Assembly (NCBI GenBank): GCA_964454265.1
Contig: CAYVXD010000013.1
Coordinates: forward strand, 35,797-48,817
Reading direction: 5' to 3'
From: an uncultured Candidatus Sumerlaeota bacterium
Lineage (GTDB): Bacteria > Sumerlaeota > Sumerlaeia > MWCT01 > JAUWMI01
DNA length: 13,021 nucleotides
In this document: positions 1-13,021 of the stretch, piece after piece
Numbering within the stretch: position 1 is the first letter of the stretch
How the letters are laid out: every line of letters starts with the position of its first letter
Made by a program: the position numbers and the translations under genes
Notes under the pieces: generated by a model
The model's input: only the letters and a program-made list of their open reading frames with translations
The model's database searches: none
Told to the model about the DNA's origin: nothing

Positions 1-188
1 CGAAAAGGCTCAAAGAGCTTCTGGCAAAAGGAAGGGAGCTGCGAATACGGGATCTTAAATTAATGCTCAAGGAATTCACGGCCCAGCAGAAAGAGCGAAC
101 AGTCCGCAGAAAAGGGAAGGTCAATAAAGTGCTTGCGGAGTTTAAGAAAGACAGATTAGAAGCGGCAAACGCCTGGCGGGCTATGTAA
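1..188 (+). CDS. 3' end of a K/R/E-rich alpha-helical repeat protein, a paralog of the downstream GvpC-like gene (5'-partial; codon phase starts at nt 3; stop TAA 186-188)
   Basis: Translates as ...LKEFTAQQKERTVRRKGKVNKVLAEFKKDRLEAANAWRAM*. It shares the [LI][KR][GE]F...A(A)xxW motif vocabulary with the 308..910 protein (LKEF, LRGFEDEREKMAAEIEKMAAHWQ). It is not in the ORF track because it is truncated by the window edge. Confidence 0.4.
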   Translation, partial: KRLKELLAKGRELRIRDLKLMLKEFTAQQKERTVRRKGKVNKVLAEFKKDRLEAANAWRAM

Positions 189-307
189 AAGAAGATGGCT
201 CACAATAGGGCCAGCTCCCCCGAGGGTTTAAACATATATTCTCAGAAAAACAGTGGTAAAAAAGCGTTACTAGAAAACGCATAGAGCAGTGAAAGGAGGA
301 GGCAAAA

Positions 308-910
308 ATGGCATTAGCTGCTGAAATGAAGGGACTATGTGACGACATCATCGCCTCGTATGATACGCGAGTAAAAGCGCTAGGAGACCTGACTACCGAT
401 GTTCACAAAACGCTCAAAGGATTTACGGCTGACAGGAAGAAGATGAGTGAACAGCAGGCCAAGGCATTGGCAAGTTTTATTGGGGACTTAACTAAAGATG
501 TCGGCAACATGATAAAAGGCTTTCGGAAAGACCATAAGGCTATGGCTGGTGAACTGAAGGATAGCCTTAGGAAAAATGTTAAGGATATTGAGACTTATAC
601 GAAAAGCAAACTCAAGGAATTCAACGATGCACACGCCGGGATGAGCACAGCGCTTAAGAAAGACCTGGCCAAATATGTCTCGGGTATGGTCAGCGAAACC
701 AGCAAGCTGCTCAGGGGTTTTGAGGATGAAAGAGAAAAGATGGCGGCTGAAATAGAAAAAATGGCAGCTCATTGGCAGACTCTAACTGCTACTATGGCCA
801 AGAAAAGGGGAGGCAAGCCTGTTGTTGTCTCAGCTAAAGAAGAAGTGATGACGGTTGAGGAAGCCGTGGCCAAAAGAGGCAAGAAAAGAGGCAGGAAAAA
901 GAAGAAGTAA
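308..910 (+). CDS. gvpC: GvpC-like gas-vesicle surface protein with four exact 33-residue repeats and a polybasic C-terminal tail
   Basis: A strong SD (AGGAGGAGG) sits 8 nt upstream of ATG 308. The motifs LKGF(aa36), IKGF(aa69), LKEF(aa102) and LRGF(aa135) are spaced exactly 33 aa apart, i.e. 99 nt. Each is followed by xDxxxM (ADRKKM, KDHKAM, DAHAGM, DEREKM). The 33-aa periodicity is the hallmark of GvpC. The tail KRGKKRGRKKKK is unusual. Confidence 0.5.
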   Translation: MALAAEMKGLCDDIIASYDTRVKALGDLTTDVHKTLKGFTADRKKMSEQQAKALASFIGDLTKDVGNMIKGFRKDHKAMAGELKDSLRKNVKDIETYTKSKLKEFNDAHAGMSTALKKDLAKYVSGMVSETSKLLRGFEDEREKMAAEIEKMAAHWQTLTATMAKKRGGKPVVVSAKEEVMTVEEAVAKRGKKRGRKKKK

Positions 911-946
911 AAGCTGACTAACCTCAGCCTTATAGGACGGATTAAA

Positions 947-983
947 CGTAAGTTCATTGGCTGAACTTACGCCCAGCTTTTTT
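947..983 (+). terminator. Putative intrinsic terminator after the gvpC-like gene
   Basis: A 10-bp perfect inverted repeat cGTAAGTTCA(947-956)/TGAACTTACg(962-971) has a 5-nt loop. A TTTTTT run lies at 978-983, 6 nt downstream; a second short GCTG/CAGC stem directly abuts the T-run. Confidence 0.4.
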
Positions 984-1071
984 CCGATACCAGGAAGCGG
1001 GATGCGATTTGCACTTTCCAGCTGCGTTCGCTTCGTCCATAACCGAGGTGCACATTTGGGAGGGGAAGACT

Positions 1072-1401
1072 ATGAGTGAGATCACGTGTGCCTTTTGTAG
1101 AGGCATAGGAAAAGACCCCTTCAATCTGCTATCCGAGCTTGCCACCTGCCAGGTATGCGCAGGCACAGGTAAAGTCGAGATTATGGAGCCGGCGATCGCG
1201 TGCGCCTTTTGTAAAGGCACTGGCGTCTATCCCCATGGTGTCCGAGTGACCTGTACTGTATGCAATGGAAAGGGGATGGTTACAGTAAAAGGTAGCACTG
1301 ATGAATGCCCTCACTGTAAAGGCACTGGCCAGGCACTAGACAGCGGCCTTCCCTGTCTAGAATGCGGAGGTAAAGGGGTGGTAACTAGAAAAGCAGCCTG
1401 A
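1072..1401 (+). CDS. Small DnaJ-CR-type zinc-finger protein, 6x CxxCxGxG (paralog 1)
   Basis: RBS GGGAGGGG at 1058-1065 precedes ATG 1072; the ORF-track start at 1009 is a non-ATG upstream extension. Motifs are CAFCRGIG, CQVCAGTG, CAFCKGTG, CTVCNGKG, CPHCKGTG and CLECGGKG. This is the cysteine-rich repeat pattern of the DnaJ/Hsp40 zinc-finger domain, occurring here without a J domain. Confidence 0.75.
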   Translation: MSEITCAFCRGIGKDPFNLLSELATCQVCAGTGKVEIMEPAIACAFCKGTGVYPHGVRVTCTVCNGKGMVTVKGSTDECPHCKGTGQALDSGLPCLECGGKGVVTRKAA

Positions 1402-1472
1402 CTTGCGGTAATAGGGTTCTTTTTGAACACAAAAAGAAAACAAGAATTTAACGAGAGAGGAGAAAGATAGAG

Positions 1473-2387
1473 ATGATTAATGAGATGACTACAGTACTTG
1501 AACCGAGTCCTCTGCCAGACTTTGTGGAAACAAAATATATAAAGGATATTGCCAAAAGGGCTCTTTCCTATATTAAGGCTGGTTTTCCTGTTCACTTTAG
1601 AGGGACTTCTGGCACTGGCAAGACAACACTTGCCATGCACATAGCAAGCAAGATCAAAAGACCCGTGGTACTGATTCATGGAGATGAGGAGTTCACCACT
1701 TCTGATTTAGTGGGCGGTGAATACGGCTATAGGATTAGGAAAGTTGTTGATCGCTTTGTATCCCGAGTTTTGAAGTTGGAAGAGGATATGGTAAAACGTT
1801 GGGTGGATAATCGGTTAACCATAGCCTGTAAATACGGATTTACTTTAATATATGATGAGTTCACACGTTCACGGCCAGAGGCAAATAATATTCTCCTTTC
1901 TATTTTACAGGAGAAGATGATGGATTTGCCAGTAGGAAGAGGTGGAGAGGACCCGTATTTAAAGGTTGATCCGGATTTTACGGCTATTTTCACGAGCAAC
2001 CCTGAGGAGTATGCAGGAGTTCATAGAAGTCAGGACGCTTTACGGGATAGAATGGTAACTATGGATTTAGACCACTTTGACTTCGATACAGAAGTCGCTA
2101 TCACCCAGGCTAAATCCAAACTCTCTAGACCACATGCTGAAATGATAGTTGCTATTGTAAGGGGGTTGAGAGAATCCGGAAAATGTGAGTTCGCGCCCAC
2201 CATCCGCGGCTGTATTATGATTGCCAAGACCCTTAAAGTTCAAGGTTTTACAGCTGTCAGCTCTAATGGTGCCTTTACGCAGATTTGTCAGGATATACTC
2301 GCTTCTGAGACAAGCAGAGTAGGTTCAAAGACCAACCAGACCAGGGTGAAAGAGATAGTTAAGGAGCTGATTAAAAAGTACAGTTAA
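1473..2387 (+). CDS. gvpN: Gas vesicle protein GvpN (AAA+ ATPase, CbbQ/NirQ/GvpN family)
   Basis: RBS GAGAGGAG lies upstream. Walker A is FRGTSGTGKTTLAMHIA, and a Walker B-like TLIYDEF follows. The ~300-aa length and the single AAA module are typical of GvpN. Confidence 0.85.
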   Translation: MINEMTTVLEPSPLPDFVETKYIKDIAKRALSYIKAGFPVHFRGTSGTGKTTLAMHIASKIKRPVVLIHGDEEFTTSDLVGGEYGYRIRKVVDRFVSRVLKLEEDMVKRWVDNRLTIACKYGFTLIYDEFTRSRPEANNILLSILQEKMMDLPVGRGGEDPYLKVDPDFTAIFTSNPEEYAGVHRSQDALRDRMVTMDLDHFDFDTEVAITQAKSKLSRPHAEMIVAIVRGLRESGKCEFAPTIRGCIMIAKTLKVQGFTAVSSNGAFTQICQDILASETSRVGSKTNQTRVKEIVKELIKKYS

Positions 2388-2417
2388 CCATCTAGGGAGG
2401 AAAGTCAAACGACTCTT

Positions 2418-2579
2418 ATGCGAGCATTTTCTAAAGTAGATAAACGTGGGAACATAAAGATTCCTGCCAATATTCAGCGAGCTGCAAGCCTTAAACAAGG
2501 CGAATTGCTTGAGCTGAAGATTGTGGGGGCAACGAGAAAGAAGAACGTTTTGGTTTCGGCCAGAGGTAGTACGAGGTAG
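2418..2579 (+). CDS. 53-aa AbrB/SpoVT (MazE-like swapped-hairpin) family small DNA-binding protein, putative regulator
   Basis: Not in the ORF track because it is under 60 aa. It translates as MRAFSKVDKRGNIKIPANIQRAASLKQGELLELKIVGATRKKNVLVSARGSTR*. The pattern 'KVDKRGNIKIPANIRRA..L..GE.LEL' matches the SpoVT/AbrB N-terminal domain signature (kvD.kGRivIPkeiRe.lgi..Gd.lel). GGGAGG lies upstream. Confidence 0.5.
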   Translation: MRAFSKVDKRGNIKIPANIQRAASLKQGELLELKIVGATRKKNVLVSARGSTR

Positions 2580-2612
2580 ATCTCCAAATTTTTTCATGTA
2601 GGGGCGATAACA

Positions 2613-2945
2613 ATGAGAGATGTGAACACTTTAAAAGGACTCCATTCAGCAAGAACTATACATAGCACAAGGAAACGTTCAATACCCAGAATTCAGAGCT
2701 CACCCTATTTAGATTTATATATGCTTAATAAAGAGAAAGAAAGGCTTGTGAAAGAAGATCAAAGACTATCTATGAGGAAGGATGCCATTAAAAAGCGCCT
2801 GGAAGAAATAGACCTGGAAATGAATAAGATAGAAGAATCTGGGGCAGCCGAGAGAGCCAATAGACAAGCGGGTTCTTTAGAACACGCTTCTACTGAAGGC
2901 AATGATATCAAAAAAGAATGGAAGAAGCTTCGTTTAAACTATTGA
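2613..2945 (+). CDS. Hypothetical charged coiled-coil protein (possible gvp accessory protein)
   Basis: RBS GTAGGGG sits 8 nt upstream of ATG 2613. The C-terminal half is heptad-like and K/E-rich (LNKEKERLVKEDQRLSMRKDAIKKRLEEIDLEMNKIEE). It is co-oriented and tightly spaced with its neighbours. Confidence 0.5.
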   Translation: MRDVNTLKGLHSARTIHSTRKRSIPRIQSSPYLDLYMLNKEKERLVKEDQRLSMRKDAIKKRLEEIDLEMNKIEESGAAERANRQAGSLEHASTEGNDIKKEWKKLRLNY

Positions 2946-2963
2946 TTTCTTAAAGCGAGTCGC

Positions 2964-3374
2964 ATGCATTGGGAGACATTCAATTTTAAGGCCAGCAGGA
3001 CCAGGCTAGGTCGAACAATAGGCCGTGTTCTAGAAGGCAGGAAGTTTACCTGTTCCTTATGTGCTGGTACAGGGATACTGCCCAGGAGCAAAGGCATAGA
3101 ATGTCCAGTATGTAAAGGTGCGGGCATAATCAATTTACAGGGACCTGTAGTTGTATGTGCTTATTGTAAAGGCAGAGGCGACTATCCGGCCAGAACAAAT
3201 ATTACCTGTACCGTCTGTGGAGGGAAAGGCCTGGTTAGTATTACCGAGCCTGTTGAAATATGTAAACATTGCAGGGGAACCGGCGCAGAGCCAGAGAATA
3301 AACTTCCTTGCCTGGAATGCAGAGGTAAAGGTGTTGTTCCTCGTTTTGTTCCGGCTGAGTCTCACTCCGAGTAA
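2964..3374 (+). CDS. Small DnaJ-CR-type zinc-finger protein, 6x CxxCxGxG (paralog 2)
   Basis: Motifs are CSLCAGTG, CPVCKGAG, CAYCKGRG, CTVCGGKG, CKHCRGTG and CLECRGKG, colinear with the 1072..1401 protein. The RBS is weak, and the start lies 18 nt after the upstream stop, so translational coupling is likely. Confidence 0.7.
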   Translation: MHWETFNFKASRTRLGRTIGRVLEGRKFTCSLCAGTGILPRSKGIECPVCKGAGIINLQGPVVVCAYCKGRGDYPARTNITCTVCGGKGLVSITEPVEICKHCRGTGAEPENKLPCLECRGKGVVPRFVPAESHSE

Positions 3375-3423
3375 AACGAGGGATTACGAAGTCAAAATGG
3401 ATGATTAGAAAGGAGAAAAGATC

Positions 3424-3696
3424 ATGAAAGTAGAAGAAGTAAATAAGGCAATCGTAGAGTTTTTGAAATCTACTGTTAATGCAAATGCTCGAGATGCGAA
3501 AGTAATAAAGGTGGAGAGGTCGCAAGATGGGTGGATAGGTGAGGCTGAAGTTTTTGAGGAGAGTGCATTTATTAAATCTTTAGGTCTACCTACAAAGGTT
3601 CAGGATAGAAATATCTATGAGATTAAATTAACTGATACCCTGGAAGTAATTTCTTATTCACGAAAACATGCATCTTTAGGGGTTGAAAATGGCTGA
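3424..3696 (+). CDS. gvpO: GvpO-like gas vesicle protein
   Basis: RBS AGGAG lies upstream. The core VIKVERSQDGWIGEAEVFEE...YEIKLTDTLEVISYSRKH matches the conserved GvpO C-terminal pattern (V.rv...dG.W.v.vEvvE...IP...D....YEv.ld..g.l..y.R), as recalled from haloarchaeal and bacterial GvpO. The stop overlaps the start of the next gene. Confidence 0.6.
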   Translation: MKVEEVNKAIVEFLKSTVNANARDAKVIKVERSQDGWIGEAEVFEESAFIKSLGLPTKVQDRNIYEIKLTDTLEVISYSRKHASLGVENG

Positions 3697-4015
3697 TCAG
3701 ATAGTTCATGCAGTTCAAGCAACAAATCTGGCGGATATATTAGAAAGGGTCTTAGATAAAGGTATAGTTATCGCTGGAGATATTAAGATTCAACTTGCTG
3801 ACATTGATCTTCTCAACATCAAGATAAGGCTTTTGATTGCCTCCGTAGATAAAGCCATGGAAATGGGGATAAATTGGTGGCAACACGATTCTTATCTTTG
3901 CGCCAATTCGAAAGAGACGGAGCTAGAGCAAGAAAATCACTCTCTGAAGAAAGAGTTTAAATCGCTTAAGTCAAAAGTGGAGGACGTAATTTCAAAGTAT
4001 AAGAGACAAGAATGA
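3689..4015 (+). CDS. GvpA/J/M-family gas vesicle structural protein (GvpJ-like, with a charged coiled-coil C-terminal extension)
   Basis: NLADILERVLDKGIVIAGDIKIQLADIDLLNIKIRLLIASVDKAMEMG is the conserved GvpA-family core (LaevlDRiLDKGvVi.adi.vsl.dieLL.i..R.viASv). AGGGG lies 6 nt before ATG 3689; the track's start at 3683 is a non-ATG extension. The sequence 'GDIKIQLAD' resembles GvpJ/M more than the GvpA 'AWVRVSLVG'. Confidence 0.8.
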   Translation: MADQIVHAVQATNLADILERVLDKGIVIAGDIKIQLADIDLLNIKIRLLIASVDKAMEMGINWWQHDSYLCANSKETELEQENHSLKKEFKSLKSKVEDVISKYKRQE

Positions 4016-4069
4016 TTTGAAATTCTCTGAGAGGCAATATCTTCGCAGTAACTATTAGCTGGAGGGGAA

Positions 4070-4351
4070 ATGAGCTGGCGAGCGACGGAGTGCACCAATC
4101 AAAATGTAGCGCGAGTCCATGAAGTTTCTGCCAAGGATGTCTATACGTGTGGTATTTGCGGGGGCACAGGTCTTTTGTTTTCTAAAGTGGGCATAGAACA
4201 CCCTGTTTGTTCAGGCGAAGGGAAAGCAAATATCCCGCACTTGGCTGTAATTTGTGCCTACTGTGATGGAACAGGCAAGAGGAATGAAAGGAGTGGCCTC
4301 CCTTGCCTGTATTGTTTATTTTGGGATAGATGCCGGGGACGCGACTATTAG
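4070..4351 (+). CDS. Degenerate DnaJ-CR-type zinc-finger protein (paralog 3; motifs partly eroded)
   Basis: RBS GGAGGGG immediately precedes ATG 4070. Motifs are CGICGGTG, HPVCSGEG (the first Cys is replaced by His), CAYCDGTG and CLYC, followed by a non-canonical tail (LFWDRCRGRDY). This gives only about 3.5 motifs against 6 in the paralogs. Confidence 0.6.
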   Translation: MSWRATECTNQNVARVHEVSAKDVYTCGICGGTGLLFSKVGIEHPVCSGEGKANIPHLAVICAYCDGTGKRNERSGLPCLYCLFWDRCRGRDY

Positions 4352-4463
4352 GCAGGTTCAGCCCTGGCCTCTTTGTGGAGAAATATCGAGCAGGAGAATA
4401 AAGAGCTTTCTTCATTCAGGATAAAATTTCCTCCCTAAAAAGAGGAAGAGGCGGGTAGCTACT

Positions 4464-5003
4464 ATGGGAAAAGAAAAAGAGAAAAAAGAAGATGAAGAAT
4501 TGGATATTGATTTTGGCATAGGTAGATTAGGCCTGAGGGGTTTATTTCAAGGCATAGAGAACTTGGTAGATCTTGCAGCGAAATTGAAAGAGGCAGGCGG
4601 CGAAATCAAGAAAGAAGGCGAAATTGACTTAAGCCATCTTAAAGAAGGTATGAAGGGAGTTTTTGGTTTCTCAATAAAGACAGCGGTGGGAGGGAAGCCA
4701 GTAGTCGAGTCGTTTGGTAACATCAAAAGGACTCCTAGGGGCCCTACTGTTGAAGAAGAAAGAGAACCTATTATAGACATCTTTGACGAAGAAGGAGAAG
4801 AGGTTCGACTGTACGCTGAAATGCCAGGCGTCAATGAAGAAGATATAAAGCTGGATTTAAAAGAGGATATTCTTGATATTTCAGCGCAGACCGGAGACAG
4901 AAAATACCACAAAGAAGTTTTACTCCCGGCAAAAGTTGAACCTGAGAGCCTTACGTCGAGTTATAGAAATGGTATTTTGGAAATAATAACGAAGAAATGT
5001 TAA
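4464..5003 (+). CDS. Hsp20/alpha-crystallin family small heat-shock protein (GvpH-like)
   Basis: The C-terminal alpha-crystallin domain reads EPIIDIFDEEGEEVRLYAEMPGVNEEDIKLDLKEDILDISAQ...YHKEVLLPAKVEPESLTSSYRNGILEI. The N-terminus is an acidic, K/E-rich region. Haloarchaeal GvpH is an Hsp20-like protein. Confidence 0.75.
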   Translation: MGKEKEKKEDEELDIDFGIGRLGLRGLFQGIENLVDLAAKLKEAGGEIKKEGEIDLSHLKEGMKGVFGFSIKTAVGGKPVVESFGNIKRTPRGPTVEEEREPIIDIFDEEGEEVRLYAEMPGVNEEDIKLDLKEDILDISAQTGDRKYHKEVLLPAKVEPESLTSSYRNGILEIITKKC

Positions 5004-5008
5004 ATTAA

Positions 5009-5944
5009 ATGGCATTGGCCGACATAAGAGAAGATGGGTTAAAATTAATTCTATTCGGAGGGAAAGGCGGTGTGGGAAAGACGACCTGTGCCTCAAGCAC
5101 AGGTCTTTATTTAGCTAAAGATTTTAAGACCCTGCTTGTTTCTACGGACCCAGCCCATTCGTTATCTGACAGTTTAGGGCAAAACATTGGTGACGAGATT
5201 AGCGAAATAAAAGGAATAAGAAACTTAAGCGCTGTTGAAGCAAGCGCGGAAAAGGCCCTTTCAAGATTCAAAATAGAATACGAAGATGAGATAAAAAAGA
5301 TTTTAGATACCTCTACTTATTTGGACCAGGAAGATATTGACTCTGTCTTTGACTTGCCTATTCCAGGTCTGGATGAGGTAATGGGATTCAAGACGATCAT
5401 TGATCTTATTGATGAGGCGGAGTTCGACAAATACATTGTTGATACGGCGCCTACCGGCCACGCGCTGAGACTTCTGGCCTTGCCGGATCTGCTTGATGAC
5501 TGGATCAAAGTGGTGGCGAAGATGAGATGGAAGTATCGGTATATGATCGACAGATTTGCCGGAAGGTACAACCCGGACGAAGGCGATGACTTTTTGCTGA
5601 CTATGAAGAAGACGGTAAAGAGGATAGAAGGCCTACTTCGCGATAAAAAAAGATGCGAATTCATAGCAGTTACAATCCCAGAAGAAATGGCCATTTTGGA
5701 GACTGACAGACTGATTAACAGTTTAGGCAGCTATGGGATGAAGGTGAAACGGCTCATTATTAATAATGTATTAGAATCAAGAGATTGTGCATTTTGCCGA
5801 GAAAGAAAAAAGGAACAAGAGAAATATATCGGCAAGATAAGAAGGAAATTCAGCAGCCTCCAGATAACAATTACTCCATTACAACCTAGAGAGGTTAGAG
5901 GGATACAAGACCTGGAGAATTTCAAAGAGCTGCTATTTGGGTAA
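5009..5944 (+). CDS. Get3/ArsA-family P-loop ATPase (anion-transporting ATPase-like)
   Basis: The deviant Walker A is [10 protein letters not shown]. The Get3/ArsA signature [12 protein letters not shown] is present. A CxxC pair (CAFCRERKK) sits near the C-terminus, resembling the Zn-binding dimerisation CxxC of Get3-type proteins. It starts 5 nt after the Hsp20 stop. Confidence 0.8.
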
Positions 5945-5946
5945 TT

Positions 5947-8088
5947 ATGACGAAGAAAGATGACAATGCAATGACATTGAAAGTGCAAGAAGCTTTGTCA
6001 AAGGATGTGGGCAGGGCAATTGCAAGGATAGACCCTGAAGATATGAAAAGTTTAGGGCTCGAAGTGGGAGAAATAATAGAGATTGGAGGTAAAAGAAAGA
6101 CGGCGGCGAAGGTAATGCCCTGTTATGCTGAAGATAGAGGGAAGAAGATTATTCAGATGGACGGGATCTCAAGAGAGAATGCCCAAATCGGTTTGGATGA
6201 AAAGGCAAAGATTCGTAAAGTTGGTCATAGACCCGCTAATAAAATCAAGCTCTCACCATTAACTGCATCACACCTGGTTCAAAGAGATAAGGATGCCAAA
6301 TATATCGGCTCTCTCATTGCAGGGATCCCTGTTTCCACCGGTGATAGGGTTAGAGCTACGCTTTTTGGATCAAGATCCTGCGATTTTAAGGTAGTAGGTA
6401 CTATCCCTGATGGGGTGGTATTGGTAAGTCCAACCACCATAGTGAGGATGGAGACAAAGAAATTAGGTGAAAGGGGTCCAGCCAAAGTTGCATATGAAGA
6501 TATTGGCGGACTCGGCACACAAATTCAAAGAATCAGAGAAATGATAGAACTTCCTCTACGATATCCTGAAGTTTTTGAGAGACTGGGAATCGATGCGCCG
6601 AAAGGTGTTTTTCTCTACGGACCACCGGGGACGGGAAAGACTTTAATTGCTCGAGCCGTGGCGAATGAAACGGACGCTTATTTTACTCATATATCAGGCC
6701 CTGAGATTATGGGCAAGTTCTACGGTGAAAGCGAGGCGCGTTTAAGAAGCGTATTTGAGGATGCCCAGAAACATGCGCCCGCTATAATCTTTATCGATGA
6801 GATAGATGCCATTGCCCCTAAAAGAGAAGAGATGGGCGGGGAGAAACAGGTTGAAAGACGTGTTGTGGCTCAGCTTTTAGCGCTGCTAGATGGATTAGAA
6901 TCTCGAGGGGAGGTAGTGATAATAGGAGCGACTAATATTCCTAATACTATAGACCCAGCCTTAAGAAGACCAGGACGGTTTGATAGAGAAATAGCCATCC
7001 CTATACCGGATAGGAATGGAAGATTAGAGATCTTACAGATTCATACCAGAGGCATGCCTCTTGCAGAAGACGTCAGCGTAGAAAAACTAGCTGAAATAAC
7101 TCATGGCTTTGTAGGAGCAGATTTAGAGGCCTTGGCAAGAGAAGCAGCTATGTCGGCTTTAAGGAAGATATTACCTAAAATAGATTTTGAATTGGCCGAT
7201 ATCCCATATGAGACTTTGATGAAGTTAGAAGTGACAATGGATAATTTTCTGGAGGCAATGAGGGAGGTCGAGCCATCGGCGATTAGAGAAGTGTTTGTAG
7301 AAGTCCCGGATGTGAAATGGAGTGATGTGGGCGGCCTCGATGATATCAAGGAAGAGCTAAGAGAGGCGATAGAATGGCCGCTTGAATATTCAGATGTTTT
7401 TAAGAAAGCAAGTACTCATCCTCCCAAAGGGATTTTGCTCTATGGATTACCTGGCACAGGGAAGACACTCCTGGCCAAGGCAGTGGCTAATGAAAGCGGG
7501 GTTAATTTTATATCCATTAAAGGTCCACAACTTATTAGCCGTTATGTTGGAGAATCAGAGCGAGGGGTGAGGGAGATATTCAAGAAGGCGAAGCAAGCTG
7601 CGCCAACAATACTTTTTCTGGATGAAATAGATAGCCTTGTTCCAATAAGAGGCTCAAGTTCTACAAGCGGTCATGTGACAGAGAGGGTAATAAGCCAATT
7701 TTTAACGGAAATGGATGGGATTGAGGAGCTTAAAGGGGTCGTTGTTTTAGCAGCTACTAACAGATTAGATTTAATTGACCCAGCATTACTAAGAAGTGGA
7801 AGATTGGACCTTTTGCTCGAGTTGCCTGCACCAGATGAAAAAGCCAGGGAGGAGGTATTCAAAATCCATACTCGCAATAAGCCGCTTGCCAAGGATGTTG
7901 ATTTGAAAAGCCTGGCCAAGGAGACTGAAGGTAAAGTAGGCTCTGACATTGAATTTATCTGCCGAAAGGCCTCTATGTTTGCGATAAGAGAATTTATAGA
8001 AAATCCAAAGGAGAAAAGCGGACCTATTATCAGAAGAACGCATTTTGAAGAGGCCATTAAGCTATTAGAAAAAAGAACACACGAATGA
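5947..8088 (+). CDS. Cdc48/VCP/p97-type AAA+ ATPase (N-domain plus tandem D1/D2 AAA modules)
   Basis: Two Walker A sites are present, [19 protein letters not shown] and [19 protein letters not shown]. The Walker B sites are [10 protein letters not shown] and [13 protein letters not shown]-like arginines occur ([22 protein letters not shown]; [19 protein letters not shown]). The N-terminal segment is a Cdc48_N-like double-psi barrel. The gene is 713 aa long and starts 2 nt after the Get3 stop. Confidence 0.85.
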
Positions 8089-8161
8089 AGATCCTCGGCC
8101 ACAAAATTAGAGGTAAAAGGGCTTTCGGCCTATCTTGATTGTCAGTAAGAAAGGAGGAGAG

Positions 8162-8188
8162 ATGCAATTTTTAGGATTTGTCCTATGA
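8162..8188 (+). other. Candidate 8-codon upstream ORF (MQFLGFVL*) behind a near-perfect SD in the 215-nt intergenic region
   Basis: AAGGAGGAGAG at 8151-8161 is immediately followed by ATG 8162, then CAA TTT TTA GGA TTT GTC CTA TGA. This is the strongest SD in the window, but it drives only a tiny ORF. Confidence 0.2.
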
Positions 8189-8251
8189 CTTGAGTAGGGC
8201 GCTGTATGCAATAAAGTTAAGAACTTCTTCTTTGCCTTTGTCCTGAAAGTG

Positions 8252-8286
8252 CCTTAGGGGAGGGCATGGTGTTGCCTCCCCTAAGG
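8252..8286 (+). promoter_or_regulatory. GC-rich stem-loop overlapping the ribosome-binding region of the GvpF/L-J gene
   Basis: CCTTAGGGGAGG(8252-8263) pairs with CCTCCCCTAAGG(8275-8286) as a perfect 12-bp inverted repeat; GCA/TGC pairs can extend it and the loop is about 6 nt. The 3' arm runs into AAGGTG, the SD for ATG 8304. No T-run follows, so it is not a classical intrinsic terminator. Confidence 0.4.
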
Positions 8287-8303
8287 TGAAAAGGTGTGCC
8301 ATA

Positions 8304-9434
8304 ATGGATAGAATAGGAAAATATATTTACGGAATTATAACTTCTAATGGAAAAGAGCTTTTTGGCTCTTGTATGCCAGCCGAAGCATCGGTGCAGGCAG
8401 GAGCGATTACAGCCTGTGAAGAAGCTCTCTCGATTAGAGGTGCCTCGGACGCTCCTGGAGAGTGCAAAACTCCTGGGGCCGTTTATACTATTCCATATCA
8501 GGATATCTCGGCTGTGGTTAGCGACTCAGAGATAGCTGATTATGGCCTTTTACTTAAGGATGAAGTAGCCAGGCGGTTAATTAAACATCAGCGGGTAATT
8601 GAAAAGGTTATGGAGAACTTTATGATTATTCCGATGCGGTTAGGAACTTTTGCTTACGATGCAGATGAGGTGGTCCGTATTTTGGCTCAAGGCTATATAA
8701 TAACTAAAGGCATATTTAATAAGGTATTTGATAAAATAGAGATTGATGTAGTTGCGGTGTGGAATGATTTCAATTCAGTCCTTCAAGAGGTAGTAGAAGA
8801 GAAAGAAATTAAGGAATTAAAAGGCAGACTCTTAGCTAATCCTAATGGGATAACGAAAGATGACCAGATGAAAGTGGGGATGATGGTTAAAAATCACCTG
8901 GATAAGAAAAGAGAAAAATGTGCTTTTGAGATACAAAGTGTTCTAAAGACTATTAGCCATGATTTTAGGGTACATGAGCTTATGAATGATAGAATGGTTA
9001 TTAATATGGCCTTTTTGATAAGTAAGGCCAAGGGTGAAGATTTCGATAGGAAAGTAGAAGAGCTAAATACTGCATTTGCTGATAAGTTAAATTTTAGATG
9101 TGTTGGGCCGCTTCCGCCTTATAGTTTTTACACGCTGGAGATAAAGAAGATGCAAATTGAAGAAATGGATTGGGCGAGAAAGAAACTCGGTTTAAATGAT
9201 GCTACAAGTAAAGCTGAAATTAAGAAAGCCTATCAGAGGCTAGCCTTTACTTCTCATCCTGATAAAAACTCACATATGCCAGGAACAGAAAGAGAATTTG
9301 ATGATGTTAATAAGGCTTACAGGATACTAATTGACTATTGTGAGGCTTGTGAACAGGTAAGCCAGCAAGATAGTTTTTCTCTTAGTGCGGAGGGATTCAA
9401 AAAGAACGCAATTTTGGTTACAGTGAGAGAATAG
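8304..9434 (+). CDS. GvpF/GvpL-family gas vesicle protein with a C-terminal DnaJ J-domain fusion
   Basis: SD AAGGTG lies 7 nt upstream of ATG 8304; the ORF-track GTG at 8286 is probably an over-extension. The N-terminus GKYIYGII is the GvpF/L-typical YxYG(I/V) start. The region HQRVIEKVMENFMIIPMRLGTFAYDADEV is paralogous to the 9436, 10773 and 12051 GvpF/L genes. The C-terminal ~60 aa reads DWARKKLGLNDATSKAEIKKAYQRLAFTSHPDKN...FDDVNKAYRIL, a J-domain with an intact HPD motif. Confidence 0.8.
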   Translation: MDRIGKYIYGIITSNGKELFGSCMPAEASVQAGAITACEEALSIRGASDAPGECKTPGAVYTIPYQDISAVVSDSEIADYGLLLKDEVARRLIKHQRVIEKVMENFMIIPMRLGTFAYDADEVVRILAQGYIITKGIFNKVFDKIEIDVVAVWNDFNSVLQEVVEEKEIKELKGRLLANPNGITKDDQMKVGMMVKNHLDKKREKCAFEIQSVLKTISHDFRVHELMNDRMVINMAFLISKAKGEDFDRKVEELNTAFADKLNFRCVGPLPPYSFYTLEIKKMQIEEMDWARKKLGLNDATSKAEIKKAYQRLAFTSHPDKNSHMPGTEREFDDVNKAYRILIDYCEACEQVSQQDSFSLSAEGFKKNAILVTVRE

Positions 9435-9435
9435 T

Positions 9436-10206
9436 ATGCACAAAGAAGGAAAGTATGTTTATTGTATTATTGGCACAAAGCAGGAAAGAAATTTTGGACC
9501 TATAGGCATAGGTAGAAGAGGTGATGAGGTCTTAACTATTGGCTATGATGACCTAAGCATGGTTGTAAGCAATCATCCTATGGCCAAACTTGTTGTTAAC
9601 TTGGAAAATATATTAGCCCATGAGAAGATAACTGAGGAGGTAATGAGAGAATTTGACAGTGTTCTTCCAGTTCGATTTGGAACTATTGCGTCCAGCGCGG
9701 ATGAGATAAGAAATCTTTTAGGTAGAAGGTTTAGAGAATTTAAGAATTCTCTTAGAGATATGGATCACAAAGTAGAATTAGGTGTTAAGGGTTTATGGAA
9801 AAATATGGATGAGATTTTTAAAGAGATCGTTGAAGTGAGCAAAGGAATTAAGACGGCGAAAGAAAAAATTCTGAACGATACCGGCAAGAAGAACACCGAG
9901 GCTAAAAGGGAAGTAGGCAAGATGGTTGAGCAGGCTTTGGCAAGGAAAAAGGAAAAGGAAGCCGAGAAAATAGTGCGTGCGCTACGAAGAACATCCTTTG
10001 ATTATAAGCTTAACAAAACAATTGATGATGAGATGTTCATGAATGCTGCCTTTTTGGTTGATAAAGGAAGAGAAAAAGAATTTGACAATATTATGGATGA
10101 TTTAAGTGAGCAATACAAGGAGAGAATATTGTTTATGTATGCAGGTCCTTTGCCTGTATTTAATTTTGTCAATATTACGATATATCCAGAGGAATGGGAA
10201 AAATAA
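9436..10206 (+). CDS. GvpF/GvpL-family gas vesicle protein (paralog 2)
   Basis: The N-terminus reads GKYVYCIIG...FGPIGIGRRGDEVLTIGYDDLSMVVSN. The region ILAHEKITEEVMREFDSVLPVRFGT and the C-terminal LFMYAGPLPVFNFV are colinear with the other paralogs. It starts 2 nt after the previous stop. Confidence 0.8.
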   Translation: MHKEGKYVYCIIGTKQERNFGPIGIGRRGDEVLTIGYDDLSMVVSNHPMAKLVVNLENILAHEKITEEVMREFDSVLPVRFGTIASSADEIRNLLGRRFREFKNSLRDMDHKVELGVKGLWKNMDEIFKEIVEVSKGIKTAKEKILNDTGKKNTEAKREVGKMVEQALARKKEKEAEKIVRALRRTSFDYKLNKTIDDEMFMNAAFLVDKGREKEFDNIMDDLSEQYKERILFMYAGPLPVFNFVNITIYPEEWEK

Positions 10207-10207
10207 A

Positions 10208-10558
10208 GTGGCCTTCAGTGGGACAGAAGCAGAAATCATAAATAGCGTTGCCCGATTAAGAAAAGCAACCAAGCACCAGATAAAAAGAGCGGTGGGTTTT
10301 TCATTAGAGTATGTAGGTTTCTTATGTCGGTATTTAGTTAGGAAAGGGTATTTAGTATTTCATAATAGGCATTATTCTTTGGCAAATGCAGGAATAGGAA
10401 CATTACTGACAGAAGAAGTGCCCAAGATTGATAGAAAGTTAATGAATGAGATAGCAAAAGAAGTAGCTGCGAAGATTGGCGGCGAGTTAAAAAGGACAAT
10501 AGAAGGCACACAGATTAATGGAATACGTTATAAAGAATATAAAGCAGCAGTTCAATAA
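10208..10558 (+). CDS. Hypothetical winged-helix-like protein (probable GTG start; possibly a remnant of a disrupted gene)
   Basis: The ORF-track start at 10106 would overlap the preceding gene by 100 nt in another frame. An in-frame GTG at 10208 directly follows the upstream stop at 10204-10206. The segment EAEIINSVARLRKATKHQIKRAVGFSLEYVGFLCRYLVRKGYLV looks like an HTH plus wing. The tail DRKLMNEIAKEVAAKIGGELKRTIEG loosely resembles the MreB/actin subdomain (DeaIinyIrr..g.lIGe.tAE.iK.eiG). Confidence 0.35.
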   Translation: MAFSGTEAEIINSVARLRKATKHQIKRAVGFSLEYVGFLCRYLVRKGYLVFHNRHYSLANAGIGTLLTEEVPKIDRKLMNEIAKEVAAKIGGELKRTIEGTQINGIRYKEYKAAVQ

Positions 10559-10772
10559 GGCAAGGGGAATGCCGCGGATACAGAAGCCAATTAAGATAGT
10601 GCTATCCGGAGGGACATCTTTGCCAAAAGGTTTTGCCCAGAGATTTAAAAAGATCTTGGATCGGTTGAGTCTGCCTGTTCCAGTTGGAGAAGTGAGGATG
10701 GCGTCTCAGCCTCTGAAAAGTGTAGCGAAAGGAGCATTAGTGGCAGCTAGTGCTGATGGAGGCAAGAAATAG
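10518..10772 (+). pseudogene. 84-aa ORF carrying only the C-terminal 'adenosine' motif region of an actin/Hsp70-fold ATPase (MreB/ParM/Hsp70 NBD-like), a likely gene fragment
   Basis: KIVLSGGTSLPKGFAQRFKKILDRLSLPVPVGEVRMASQPLKSVAKGALVAA matches the MreB/actin C-terminus (VLTGGGALLRNLD..L.....IPV.VAEDPL.CVA.GaG). The N-terminal ~250 aa of the fold are absent. The ORF overlaps the upstream ORF by 41 nt in a different frame, and a frame-0 TAG at 10500-10502 blocks any upstream extension. Confidence 0.4.
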
Positions 10773-11540
10773 ATGGAAGTGGCCTTAAAAGAAGGTAAGT
10801 ATATATACTGCATAATAGAGTCAAATCAATCTCAATCATTTGGCCCATTGGGCATTGGCGGAAGAGGTGATCAATTATATACTATCTGCTTTAATGGTAT
10901 TGCCGCAGTGGTGAGCAATGCTCCGATTAAAAAATATCCCATCTCAAGAGAAAATACCCTTGGCCATGAGAAGGCAATTGAGGAGGTAATGAAAGAACAT
11001 ACAGTTTTACCAGTTAGATTTGCTACAATTGCCGAAGACGAAGGGAAGGTTAAGAAGATATTAGAAAAAGAGCACGACAGATTTAAAGGTCTGTTAGATA
11101 AGATGAGAGACAAGAAAGAGCTGGGGCTTAAAGCAATATTTAGAGAAGATGTTGTTTATAAGGATATTTTGGAAAGATACGAAGATATAAGGGTGTTAAA
11201 GGAAAAAACAGCCGGATTGCCTTCTGATAAGACGTATTATCAACGTATGGAAATAGGAAGAATGGTGGAGGCTGCTCTGCAAAAAGAGAAAGAGATTTAT
11301 AAAGGGGATATATTAAATACTTTATCGCCGTTGGCAGTGGAAGTTAAGACCACCGATACCTATTACGAGCTGATGATTATAAATGCCGCCTTCTTGGTGG
11401 AAGAACACAGAGAGGCAGAGTTTGATCAAGATGTGGAGGGACTTGCGGACAAGTATGTCGAAAAGGTTAGATTCAAGTATGTAGGCACGCTGCCAGCATT
11501 TAATTTTGTTAATCTGCTTATCAGGACAGAGGAATATTAA
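10773..11540 (+). CDS. GvpF/GvpL-family gas vesicle protein (paralog 3)
   Basis: The N-terminus reads GKYIYCIIE...FGPLGIGGRGDQLYTICFNGIAAVVSN. Further matching segments are LGHEKAIEEVMKEHTVLPVRFAT and KYVGTLPAFNFV. ATG 10773 abuts the upstream stop at 10770-10772. Confidence 0.8.
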   Translation: MEVALKEGKYIYCIIESNQSQSFGPLGIGGRGDQLYTICFNGIAAVVSNAPIKKYPISRENTLGHEKAIEEVMKEHTVLPVRFATIAEDEGKVKKILEKEHDRFKGLLDKMRDKKELGLKAIFREDVVYKDILERYEDIRVLKEKTAGLPSDKTYYQRMEIGRMVEAALQKEKEIYKGDILNTLSPLAVEVKTTDTYYELMIINAAFLVEEHREAEFDQDVEGLADKYVEKVRFKYVGTLPAFNFVNLLIRTEEY

Positions 11541-11541
11541 G

Positions 11542-11778
11542 ATGCTCTTAATTGACGATATATTGCTTGCCCCACTAAAGGCTGTCGTTTGGATGGGGAA
11601 GAAAATTAATGAGGTGGTGGAGAAGGAAGTGTCAGATGAGGGGCGAATAAAAGAGAAGCTCATGGAATTGCAATTACGGTTTGAATTGGATGAAATAAGT
11701 GAGCAAGAATATGATAAACAAGAGAAAGAGATTTTAGCGCAATTGGATGCTATTAGAAAGGCCAAAGAGGAGGTTTGA
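11542..11778 (+). CDS. gvpG: Gas vesicle protein GvpG
   Basis: MLLIDDILLAPLKAVVWMGKKINEVVEKE...GRIKEKLMELQLRFELDEISEQEYDKQEKEILAQLD matches the GvpG family pattern (M..iDDl...P..g..wl...iqe...eE......l...L..L...L..GEIseeEy...E.ell..L). GAGGAA lies 7 nt upstream of ATG 11542; the track's 11506 start lies inside the previous gene. Confidence 0.75.
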   Translation: MLLIDDILLAPLKAVVWMGKKINEVVEKEVSDEGRIKEKLMELQLRFELDEISEQEYDKQEKEILAQLDAIRKAKEEV

Positions 11779-11780
11779 AA

Positions 11781-12040
11781 CTGGTTAATATAGAAGAAGC
11801 CGGAAAAGCAACAGGTGCGGAGTTTTTGAAAAGACCTTTGGGGTAAAAGAGATAAAGGTCATTAAGGCAATACAGATTGGCAATGGCTGGGAGAATGAAG
11901 CAGAAGTATATGAAGAGAGCTATTAAAAGGCCCCTGAATTGTCAACTGGAGTGCAGGGCGGGAATACCTATTAGGTGAAACTAAACGATGGATTAGAAGT
12001 TGAAACCTATGGGTTTGATGGGATTCAGCAAGATTTCTAA
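11781..12040 (+). pseudogene. Frameshifted and stop-interrupted remnant of a second GvpO-like gene (paralog of 3424..3696)
   Basis: Frame 0 (11781-11846) reads LVNIEEAGKATGAEFLKRPLG*, corresponding to VEEVNKAIVEFLKSTVNA of the 3424 gene. After a -1 shift near 11843 it reads VKEIKVIKAIQIGNGWENEAEVYEESY* (cf. DAKVIKVERSQDGWIGEAEVFEESAF), then KAPELSTGVQGGNTY*VKLNDGLEVETYGFDGIQQDF* (cf. LGLPTKVQDRNIYEIKLTDTLEVISYSRKH). There is one frameshift and two in-frame stops (TAA 11924, TAG 11972). Confidence 0.55.
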
Positions 12041-12050
12041 TGGGGTGAAT

Positions 12051-12869
12051 ATGGAAGTAGCAAAGAAAGACCTCATCTATTTGTATTGTGTCACAAATAA
12101 GGTACCCAAGTTGAAAGAGGTAGAAGATTTGGTCGATGAACTTAGTTTTGTTCATCACTGCGGTCTTTATGCTGTGGTTAGCAAAGTCTTAGGATGTGAG
12201 TTTAGCGAGGAAAATCTAAAGAAGAATTTATGTGATATAGAGTGGGTAAAGCTTAAAGCAAGTATACACGAGAAGATAATAGAAGGGGTTATGAGAAATA
12301 GCTGTGTAGTTCCTTTTAAGTTCGCAACTTTATTCAATACCAAGGATAACTTGAAAGCGTGCATGAAGGAACATGAGGAAGAACTGAAAGAGAATTTAAA
12401 CAACTTAGAGGGCAAGGAGGAGTGGGGGGTAAAGATTTACTGTGACGCGGAAAAGTTAGAAGAAAGCCTCGTACAGGAAGATGAAGAGATCTTAAAGATC
12501 CATAAGGAAATTAGTTCTTCTACGCCTGGGAAGGCCTTTTTCTTGAAGAAGAAAGAGGAAGAGTTACTGAATATAGCAGTAAATAAGAGGATCAATGAAT
12601 ATGGTCAAGATAGTTTTGCTAGGCTTCGAGAACAGAGTCTTCAAACGCGTTTCAATAAATTATTGCCAAAAGAAGTGACTGAAAGAAAGGATGATATGGT
12701 TCTGAATTCTGCCTTTTTAGTTGAGAAGGAGAAGGTGAGTGCATTTATGAGCACGGTAGGTGTTCTGAAAGCACAACATGAGTTCAGCGGGCTATTCTTT
12801 GATTGCACCGGTCCTTGGCCACCTTACAATTTCTGTGATTTTTCAAGAGAAAAAGCACAAAATGGATAA
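12051..12869 (+). CDS. GvpF/GvpL-family gas vesicle protein (paralog 4)
   Basis: GGGGTGA lies 3 nt before ATG 12051; the track's 12000 start would run through the pseudogene remnant. The N-terminus reads KKDLIYLYCVT. Further matches are IHEKIIEGVMRNSCVVPFKFATLF and the C-terminal FDCTGPWPPYNF (cf. CVGPLPPYSF, YAGPLPVFNF). Confidence 0.75.
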   Translation: MEVAKKDLIYLYCVTNKVPKLKEVEDLVDELSFVHHCGLYAVVSKVLGCEFSEENLKKNLCDIEWVKLKASIHEKIIEGVMRNSCVVPFKFATLFNTKDNLKACMKEHEEELKENLNNLEGKEEWGVKIYCDAEKLEESLVQEDEEILKIHKEISSSTPGKAFFLKKKEEELLNIAVNKRINEYGQDSFARLREQSLQTRFNKLLPKEVTERKDDMVLNSAFLVEKEKVSAFMSTVGVLKAQHEFSGLFFDCTGPWPPYNFCDFSREKAQNG

Positions 12870-13021
12870 TGTCATTACAAAATCAAAGGATGTAACCCTT
12901 TTGGAAATTTTGGATAGGGTTTTAAATAAAGGCGTAGTTATATCCGGGGATATAGTCATTTCCGTGGCTGATGTGGATCTTATATATTTAGGCTTAAAGG
13001 TATTGCTAAGTTCAGTGGAAA
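12862..13021 (+). CDS. GvpA/J/M-family gas vesicle structural protein (3'-partial, runs off the window)
   Basis: ATG 12862 overlaps the previous stop (ATGGATAA). MDNVITKSKDVTLLEILDRVLNKGVVISGDIVISVADVDLIYLGLKVLLSSVE contains the GvpA-family core LDRvLdKGvVi.gDi.isvadvdL; it is GvpJ/M-like rather than canonical GvpA. Confidence 0.8.
   Translation, partial: MDNVITKSKDVTLLEILDRVLNKGVVISGDIVISVADVDLIYLGLKVLLSSVE

Follow-up and report, generated by a model that had tools for sequence, protein, structure and literature searches.

A gas-vesicle operon type of uncultured bacteria with an integrated chaperone and unfoldase module

The subject of this analysis is a stretch of 13,021 nt from contig CAYVXD010000013.1 of an uncultured Candidatus Sumerlaeota bacterium (hereafter, the window), which is ~13 kb of one single-strand gas-vesicle (gvp) operon and covers most, not all, of that operon. 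Between gvpN and the gvpF/L–gvpG block lies a fixed accessory module composed of stand-alone DnaJ-type CR zinc-finger proteins, Hsp20, usually a single-domain Get3/ArsA ATPase, a VAT-like Cdc48 and a GvpF/L paralogue with a J-domain. The co-occurrence of these genes with gvp genes is near-obligate when searched from either side, and we consider it probable that the module is a client-dedicated chaperone network aiding vesicle assembly. Sequence comparison shows a conserved operon type whose hosts are uncultured and mostly anaerobic bacteria, among which it seems to have moved horizontally.

Conservation of the chaperone module

Gene families in the window were called with Pfam and NCBIfam hidden Markov models (HMMs) against curated cut-offs. 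The forward scan, with one genome per species and the GvpF/L–J-domain fusion (J-fusion) as a query, found a relative in 183 species, and 80 loci were fetched. Proteins of the window were compared by tblastn with these loci and six fetched contexts, 82 after removal of four duplicates (individual loci are cited below as L001 and so on); synteny counts throughout take only loci with enough flanking sequence. Cdc48 is encoded directly upstream of the J-fusion, on the same strand, in 54 of 56 loci, and Hsp20 lies upstream in 47 of 48. GvpN was found in 39 of 41 loci, GvpG in 53 of 55, ArsA in its slot in 36 of 50 and a CR protein upstream of GvpN in 23 of 37. The 80 loci carry at least 15 phylum-level labels, among them Nitrospirota, Latescibacter, Omnitrophota, Desantisbacteria, Nitrospinota, Planctomycetota, Ignavibacteriales and Elusimicrobia, with Atribacterota, Actinomycetota, Kiritimatiellaeota, Saganbacteria, Cloacimonadota, Aminicenantes, Verrucomicrobiota, Syntrophus and others as further labels. 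Three contexts retrieved by exact protein look-up, including Omnitrophica and Desantisbacteria records, have the same colinear operon, with Cdc48 immediately 5′ of the fusion and Hsp20 present in 3/3 and single-domain ArsA in the slot in 2/3.

The reverse scan started from the window Cdc48, which was searched against metagenome contigs and gave 529 confirmed relatives; the best 80 of these (77–85% identity) were kept, and all following counts refer to them. The J-fusion is located directly downstream of Cdc48 in 61/61 cases and Hsp20 upstream in 64/64, accompanied by ArsA (53/69), GvpN (38/39), a CR protein upstream of GvpN (33/36) and GvpG (38/39). Thus, within the best 80 of the 529 relatives, this Cdc48 clade is exclusively gvp-linked. 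Because synteny holds in both directions, the chaperone genes are an integral, dedicated part of the cluster type. This bears out an earlier sequence-only reading of the window, which had predicted a dedicated chaperone module and proposed to look for recurrence of the Cdc48, Get3 and CR genes in other gvp loci. Median identity to the window proteins is 78% for Cdc48, 84% for GvpN and just 49% for the J-fusion. The high identity of Cdc48 and GvpN across distant phyla suggests horizontal spread of the whole cluster.

The genes of the window are organized as parts of one transcription unit would be. Based on the list of open reading frames (ORFs) and the HMM searches, all credible genes are on the + strand; long ORFs on the minus strand are antisense to + genes and of low complexity, and were treated as spurious. 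The Hsp20 and ArsA genes are separated by 5 nt, ArsA and Cdc48 by 2 nt, the J-fusion and GvpF/L paralogue 2 by 1 nt, and an actin remnant (see below) and GvpF/L paralogue 3 by 0 nt, and several genes overlap. The single orientation with overlapping start and stop codons described in the sequence-only reading therefore stands, with junctions of 0–5 nt or overlaps. Promoter-like sites in the window are not enriched (16 vs 24 ± 5 in shuffled sequence). Terminator-like sites number 17 vs 9.8 ± 3.5 in shuffled sequence, both strands pooled; five of them are on the + strand, four inside genes and the fifth, a weak one of five pairs, intergenic at 8119–8131. No convincing internal promoter/terminator pair was found in the window, the sigma-54 promoter consensus has 4 matches in it vs 5.5 expected, none convincing, and the window has no credible match in Rfam.

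Hsp20, the Get3/ArsA-type ATPase and Cdc48

The HMM searches placed GvpN, all four GvpF/L proteins, GvpG, GvpA/J, Hsp20, Get3/ArsA, Cdc48 and the J-domain above curated cut-offs, as the sequence-only reading had called them. Hsp20 (4464–5003, + strand) is an alpha-crystallin small heat-shock protein with an N-terminal extension of ~100 aa (PF00011, 31.7 vs 20.8 bits). It passes the NF041800 'archaeal Hsp20' equivalog (147 vs 140 bits) and weakly matches PF17886 (ArsA_HSP20), an Hsp20-like domain defined in Pfam that occurs fused to ArsA; no match to the GvpH family was obtained in Pfam at E <= 0.01.

The next gene (5009–5944, + strand) encodes a single-domain P-loop ATPase of the Get3/TRC40/ArsA type with 311 aa (PF02374, 3e-80; TIGR00345, 272 vs 135 bits), which among solved structures is closest to Chlamydomonas ARSA1 and archaeal Get3 homologues. 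The deviant P-loop and the DTAPTGH and CxFC motifs, invariant or nearly so in 89 homologues, assign it to the Get3/TRC40/ArsA family. We take the CxFC to be at the position of the zinc-binding CxxC of Get3 (dimer motif). The protein falls far below the arsenical-pump equivalog TIGR04291 (two-domain, ~580 aa), with 128 bits vs a cut-off of 650, and no ars genes were found near ArsA in the window or in the compared related loci.

Cdc48 (5947–8088, + strand) is a double-ring AAA+ unfoldase of the Cdc48/VAT type with N-D1-D2 architecture (TIGR01243, 959 vs 803 bits), composed of CDC48_N (PF02359), CDC48_2 (PF02933) and two AAA domains (PF00004). Its best solved relative, the VCP-like ATPase 5g4f, matches it from end to end with 753 bits. 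The catalytic motifs are intact: in 126 distinct gvp-linked Cdc48 sequences, both rings have an invariant Walker A lysine and an invariant Walker B Asp-Glu. In the same homologues, the D1 pore loop is K-F-Y-G, with an aromatic pair as in VAT, and D2 retains Tyr or Phe. No proteasome-docking motif of the HbYX type was found at the Cdc48 C-termini; the window protein ends in ...EKRTHE, and the tails of homologues are polar or basic and variable. It should be noted that HbYX for 20S docking characterizes those archaeal Cdc48 proteins that are coupled to the proteasome and is not general in the family.

Several components lean towards Archaea, namely, Hsp20 (NF041800), Cdc48 (closest to the VAT structure) and volactin, a family described in archaea, a remnant of which is treated below. 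Some components of the cluster, although found in bacteria, may thus stem from archaea.

The J-domain fusion, its upstream hairpin and the CR proteins

The J-fusion (8304–9434, + strand) joins a GvpF/L domain (PF06386, 5e-52) to a C-terminal J-domain (PF00226, 7.6e-14, 52 vs 27.8 bits). Its ORF opens at GTG 8286, and ATG 8304 agrees with the homologues. In profile comparisons the N-terminal part matches GvpF structures (4qsg, 6l5d) and the C-terminal part J-domains of DnaJ. Protein databases hold 1446 matches, and both domains are present in all of the best 120. The J-domain is identified by PF00226 together with the HPD motif (H324, P325, D326), which is invariant in 25 diverse homologues; stimulation of the Hsp70 ATPase is predicted from these. 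A GvpF/L–J fusion with invariant HPD would physically link Hsp70 to a Gvp protein. Exact-sequence look-ups of the J-fusion and ArsA of the window gave no match. The nearest relative is found on a 1.6-kb Logan contig, with 97% protein identity and ~96% DNA identity in the intergenic region. The plasmid collection contained no homologue of the J-fusion, just ordinary GvpF/L genes on Octadecabacter and Nostoc plasmids.

A strong RNA hairpin with a perfect 12-bp core (8250–8288, + strand, z = -3.4) is located ~15 nt 5′ of the start codon of the J-fusion. It is not followed by a U-tract and has no Rfam match. Among 95 intergenic gaps from other lineages, 23 distinct sequences have a related CTTAGGGAAGGG...CCCTTCCCTAAG hairpin at the corresponding position (loci including L001, L008, L019, L025, L030, L037-L039, L041, L052, L087, L094, L121 and L155). 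The arms are purine-rich and pyrimidine-rich, and the 3′ arm resembles the anti-Shine-Dalgarno sequence; in planctomycete loci, it could alternatively pair with a downstream Shine-Dalgarno-like GAAAGGG. Some compensatory changes are seen by eye. RNAalifold, run on a MAFFT alignment, which is not structure-aware, recovered only the nearly invariant GGGAA/TTCCC core and one compensatory change. Possible roles of the hairpin are those of a switch of translation, a site of RNA processing or a stabilising element of the mRNA.

The sequence-only reading counted three CR zinc-finger proteins, of which two are intact. CR1 (1072–1401, + strand) and CR2 (2964–3374, + strand) each contain six CxxCxGxG motifs and score 45.6 and 52.9 bits, respectively, against the PF00684 cut-off of 32.7 bits; like Cdc48 and Get3, they thus match the families proposed for them. 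CR2 is homologous to 126-aa proteins in L001, L003, L005 and L008. Six motifs, enough for three zinc centres, are present in 95 of 120 CR proteins. The third copy, CR3 (4070–4351, + strand), is degenerate, with 2/6 motifs intact, no PF00684 match and only a weak match to Anti-TRAP in Pfam. CR3 adjoins an extra GvpO–GvpJ pair, which occurs at this place also in L025 and L082, and GvpJ is found here in L037 and L059 as well.

Proposed function and alternative explanations

In Halobacterium, GvpF binds GvpA, GvpL binds GvpJ and GvpM, and the A/J/M proteins aggregate without chaperones (PMC9501494). From family membership and gene linkage we infer putative clients, an order of action and a requirement of the module for vesicle formation, and propose the following scenario. 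Hydrophobic, aggregation-prone GvpA/J/M subunits would be caught after synthesis by the ATP-independent holdases, Hsp20 and the CR proteins, while the Get3-like ATPase would shield their hydrophobic segments. The GvpF/L part of the fusion would bind these clients in the manner of Halobacterium GvpF and GvpL, and its HPD J-domain would recruit the housekeeping Hsp70 (DnaK) and trigger its ATPase at the growing vesicle. Subunits that are off-pathway or wrongly inserted could be threaded through the aromatic pore loops of the Cdc48 hexamer and so brought back to the soluble pool, with GvpN and the other Gvp proteins presumably responsible for canonical nucleation and elongation. The combination of holdase, targeting ATPase and unfoldase envisaged in the sequence-only reading, together with Hsp70 recruitment, would make a coherent model.

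Several observations weigh against assigning the module this role. All hosts of the cluster type in the forward scan are metagenome-assembled or single-amplified genomes. ArsA is absent from its slot in ~25-30% of loci, and in at least three (L003, L085, L086) a two-domain ArsA follows GvpG instead; CR proteins are absent from about a third of the genome loci. The window copy itself may not be fully functional, given its decay (a pseudogene, the actin remnant and the degenerate CR3). In addition, Halobacterium, Anabaena, Bacillus megaterium and Serratia form vesicles without Cdc48 or the J-fusion, so that the module is not universally needed. Finally, unfoldases and J-proteins also drive disassembly, and the direction, assembly or removal, is not fixed by their presence.

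Following the last point, the module could be a disassembly or recycling machine. The GvpF/L–J fusion would then act like auxilin, with Hsp70 stripping shell subunits, vesicles that have collapsed or are in surplus would lose GvpA to Cdc48, and the freed hydrophobic subunits would stay bound to Hsp20, Get3 and the CR proteins until reused or degraded; slow-growing anaerobes could in this way shed buoyancy or clear collapsed shells without dilution by growth. The synteny evidence serves this explanation equally. Cdc48/VAT enzymes are unfoldases/segregases, the VAT-type aromatic D1 pore loop is kept and the J-domain sits on a shell-protein-binding scaffold; moreover, with GvpN already being the canonical assembly ATPase, a second, far larger AAA+ machine may act otherwise. 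However, with Cdc48 C-termini lacking HbYX and no protease encoded in the cluster, there is no evident degradation route, and holdases next to structural genes fit biogenesis equally well. It also counts against recycling that we know of no organism in which active gas-vesicle disassembly has been described. We regard a pure recycling role as the main rival of the assembly model, possible but doubtful. A dual role, in which the network both chaperones assembly and, using ATP, extracts or recycles shell protein from collapsed or mis-assembled vesicles, appears unlikely as well; if true, ATP-driven shell recycling would be a process known for no gas-vesicle system.

The remaining explanations detach the chaperones from shell proteins to a varying extent. 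They might provide generic stress protection, the mobile cluster buffering the host proteome without specific recognition of Gvp clients. Heterologous gas-vesicle expression is described as proteotoxic and as impairing growth in a passage of PMC12848028, and the many phyla and high identity suggest horizontal transfer, where self-sufficiency would help. Yet the J-domain is covalently fused to GvpF/L in all of the best 120 matches, which points to client-specific targeting, and the Cdc48 clade always adjoins the J-fusion among the best 80 of its 529 relatives; generic protection is thus improbable. Cdc48, and perhaps ArsA, could instead be regulatory and unfold or inactivate a transcription factor, such as the AbrB-like protein encoded within the operon or the sigma-54 activator that related loci encode upstream; sigma-54 response regulators flank related clusters. 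A precedent for a repressing NTPase exists in haloarchaea, where GvpD reduces the amount of the activator GvpE (PMC9501494). Nevertheless, regulation leaves the co-occurring Hsp20, CR proteins and J-fusion unexplained, and the regulators differ among loci while Cdc48 is 70-87% conserved, making a regulatory role very improbable. The last alternative, already raised in the sequence-only reading, is that the proteostasis genes form a separate operon merely abutting the gvp genes. The 215-nt gap with the strong hairpin between Cdc48 and the J-fusion could be taken in its favour, but the hairpin lacks a U-tract, the window has no excess of promoter-like sites, no internal promoter/terminator pair found in it was convincing and gvp genes flank the module on both sides. 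With the order kept in >100 loci from many phyla and in both search directions, a separate operon is in effect refuted by synteny and hardly credible.

Canonical gvp genes and their surroundings

The core accessory genes of gas-vesicle clusters, namely, GvpN, four GvpF/L and GvpG, are all present. GvpN (1473–2387, + strand) is a MoxR/dynein-type AAA+ ATPase (TIGR02640, 340 bits vs a cut-off of 267; PF07728). Besides the J-fusion, GvpF/L proteins are encoded on the + strand by paralogue 2 (9436–10206; PF06386, 6e-58), paralogue 3 (10773–11540; 2e-66) and paralogue 4 (12051–12869; 3e-55; its ORF opens at TTG 12000), the E-values of all four ranging from 5e-52 to 2e-66. GvpG is encoded at 11542–11778 (+ strand; PF05120, 4e-19), in an ORF that opens at TTG 11506. 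The GvpA/J/M family is represented by a GvpJ-like gene (3683–4015, + strand; PF00741, 6.8e-17) and by a second gene (12862–13021, + strand; translation MDNVITKSKDVTLLEILDRVLNKGVVISGDIVISVADVDLIYLGLKVLLSSVE), of which the window contains just the 5′ part and at the position of which L001 and L005 have an 83-aa PF00741 gene.

The major gvpA is not within the window. Synteny with L001, L003 and L005 indicates that the cluster extends past both window ends, with gvpA upstream and further gvpF/L, gvpK, gvpO-like and gvpJ genes on the 3′ side. No GvpK is encoded in the window; syntenic loci have it ~1-2 kb past the 3′ end of the window, and its absence is most likely explained by the limits of the window. 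Two-component genes and sigma-54-dependent response regulators precede related clusters (L001 1-1030, L003 1-2466). These sigma-54-type activators resemble Serratia GvrA. On the 3′ side, some loci have PilZ-domain proteins and a DUF835 protein (L001 17576-18937, L005 17909-18247, L003 18925-19674), and DUF835 is also found within the gvp region of Methanothrix thermoacetophila (Mthe_0066). The PilZ-domain proteins make a link to cyclic di-GMP possible.

Two further calls of the sequence-only reading hold in part. The intact GvpO-like gene (3424–3696, + strand) has 60-62% identity to 87-aa proteins encoded after GvpG in L001 and L005, while its PF05800 match (E = 2.4e-4, 21.5 bits) is under the cut-off of 25. 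Similarly, the GvpC-like protein (308–910, + strand) consists of five 33-residue repeats followed by a basic tail, as revealed by autocorrelation (0.62 at shift 33 vs a shuffle maximum of 0.05), and has no GvpC match in Pfam, only weak apolipoprotein-like matches. The architecture of cyanobacterial GvpC is likewise one of 33-residue repeats. Homologues are found at the same position in most loci, and the one in L008 has an extra acidic C-terminal extension. The adjacent repeat-rich coiled-coil gene, of which the window contains the 3′ end (3–188, + strand, frame open from the window start), is a paralogue of 308–910 and matches the C-terminus of the L008 1335-2099 product; it is 254-265 aa long in related loci, and the same position is filled in L001 and L005. 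Its product is a probable GvpC-like outer-shell protein.

Two small genes follow gvpN on the + strand. The first (2418–2579) encodes a 53-aa AbrB/SpoVT-like protein, which matches TIGR01439 weakly (E = 9e-4) and shares 77% identity with the product of a 56-aa ORF in L008 (4827-4997); its counterpart in L001 (4839-5006) is annotated as PF04014. An AbrB/SpoVT (MazE-like) gene lies directly 3′ of GvpN in a subset of loci and is a possible in-operon regulator. The second (2613–2945) encodes a conserved coiled-coil protein of 101-110 aa with no match in Pfam or NCBIfam and a homologue after GvpN in nearly all loci.

Gene decay and the volactin remnant

The window copy of the cluster shows signs of decay that the sequence-only reading overlooked. 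A second GvpO-like gene (11775–12040, + strand), compared with the intact 87-aa genes L001 12904-13167 and L005 14881-15144, is a pseudogene with one frameshift and the in-frame stop codons TAA 11924 and TAG 11972. A recoded genetic code was considered for these stops and rejected, given that two different stop codons are involved, that a frameshift accompanies them and that an intact paralogue exists (3424-3696).

The other remnant comprises the last 84 codons of an actin-like gene of the volactin family (10518–10772, + strand). It matches just profile positions 248-321 of 321 of PF25216 (3.8e-15), so that the full-length actin fold is not encoded in the window. Comparison with L011 and L005 indicates that a ~1 kb deletion removed the rest of the gene and also truncated the preceding gene for a winged-helix-like protein (10106–10558, + strand), which aligns with L011 11713-12318 and L005 12078-12632, has lost its C-terminal part and has no Pfam match. 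The true start of this gene is probably after 10206. Full-length volactin genes of 334-354 aa are present in L005 (12625-13629) and L011 (within ORF 12300-13364), and overall in ~10% of related clusters (5/55 and 4/36). In every case the gene for the winged-helix-like protein (178-201 aa) is located ahead of the actin gene, and it is the more frequent of the two among the loci; its product could serve as a filament adaptor. By analogy with MamK and magnetosomes, an actin homologue in a gvp operon suggests cytoskeletal positioning of the vesicles.

Implications

Assembly of the 3-nm amphipathic gas-vesicle shell is still termed elusive in a passage of PMC11445434, and a passage of PMC12848028 names proteotoxic stress as a limit on heterologous expression for ultrasound reporters. 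Under the preferred explanation, a dedicated chaperone network for assembly, a chaperone/unfoldase set fixed across many phyla points to specific steps needing help, namely, solubility of the GvpA family, hand-over to Hsp70 via a GvpF/L adaptor and removal of off-pathway products. The natural cluster supplies directly testable parts for these steps. It also exemplifies how a bacterial organelle has recruited a true unfoldase of the Cdc48/VAT type along with an ATPase of the Get3 type, and the actin-like gene in some relatives raises the question of cytoskeletal vesicle positioning.

Comparison with known systems

The cluster type is public in sequence databases, and papers on candidate-phyla genomes with such clusters mention just 'gas vesicle genes'. 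As far as we could see, Cdc48, the J-fusion and CR proteins in gvp clusters have apparently not been analysed previously: a full-text literature search of ~8 million papers and preprints, with most subscription journals outside its reach, found nothing linking Cdc48, J-domain/DnaJ or CR zinc fingers to gas vesicles, the matches being unrelated work on haloarchaea or eukaryotes. The claim of the sequence-only reading that the combination is undescribed holds, as far as this search reaches, for these three; ArsA together with Hsp20 had been published in 2010. Castillo and Saier (PMC2963123) reported ArsA homologues and Hsp20 in gvp operons of Chlorobi, Bacteroidetes, Geobacter, cyanobacteria and an acidobacterium, including Pelodictyon luteolum, Polaribacter irgensii, Geobacter uraniireducens and Anabaena/Nostoc, and proposed that ArsA energises a biogenesis step, with Hsp20 as a chaperone. 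Like the cluster type described here, those operons combine gvpN, several gvpF/L, gvpG/J/K/M, hsp20 and an arsA homologue. However, their gvp-linked ArsA is described as a two-domain protein of ~600 aa, whereas the one described here is single-domain, with 311 aa, and Get3-like with CxxC; Cdc48, a J-domain fusion or CR zinc-finger proteins are not mentioned in the text of PMC2963123.

The canonical clusters (Halobacterium gvpACNO/DEFGHIJKLM, Anabaena, Bacillus megaterium and Serratia ATCC 39006) share with the window GvpA/J/M, GvpN, GvpF/L, GvpG and GvpO-like proteins as well as a 33-residue-repeat outer protein. In contrast, Cdc48, Get3/ArsA, J-domain and CR proteins do not appear for them in the 2022 review of Gvp proteins (PMC9501494). 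The module is also absent from the archaeal gvp region of Methanothrix thermoacetophila (Mthe_0053-0073), whose unlabelled loci encode regulators (a GvpD-like ATPase, a PAS kinase, a response regulator, DUF835 and PadR) and neither Cdc48 nor ArsA.

Individual components can be compared with better-known relatives. VAT/archaeal Cdc48 (Thermoplasma, 5g4f) has the same N-D1-D2 architecture and the aromatic pair in the D1 pore loop, but the window Cdc48 is bacterial, lies inside a gvp operon and has no HbYX-like C-terminus. Actinobacterial Cpa is a further Cdc48-type protein for comparison. Get3/TRC40 of the GET pathway and chloroplast ARSA1 are the same kind of single-domain P-loop ATPase with conserved CxxC; here, however, there is no evident membrane receptor or tail-anchored client, and the presumed clients are shell proteins assembling at the gas-water interface. 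In DnaJ, the CR region is part of the same protein and forms two zinc centres, whereas in the gvp clusters it is encoded separately and has motifs for three. Auxilin, which acts in clathrin uncoating, and other class C J-proteins combine a client- or lattice-binding domain with an HPD J-domain that brings Hsp70 to one assembly. The J-fusion has the same layout as these adaptors, with GvpF/L as the client-binding domain.

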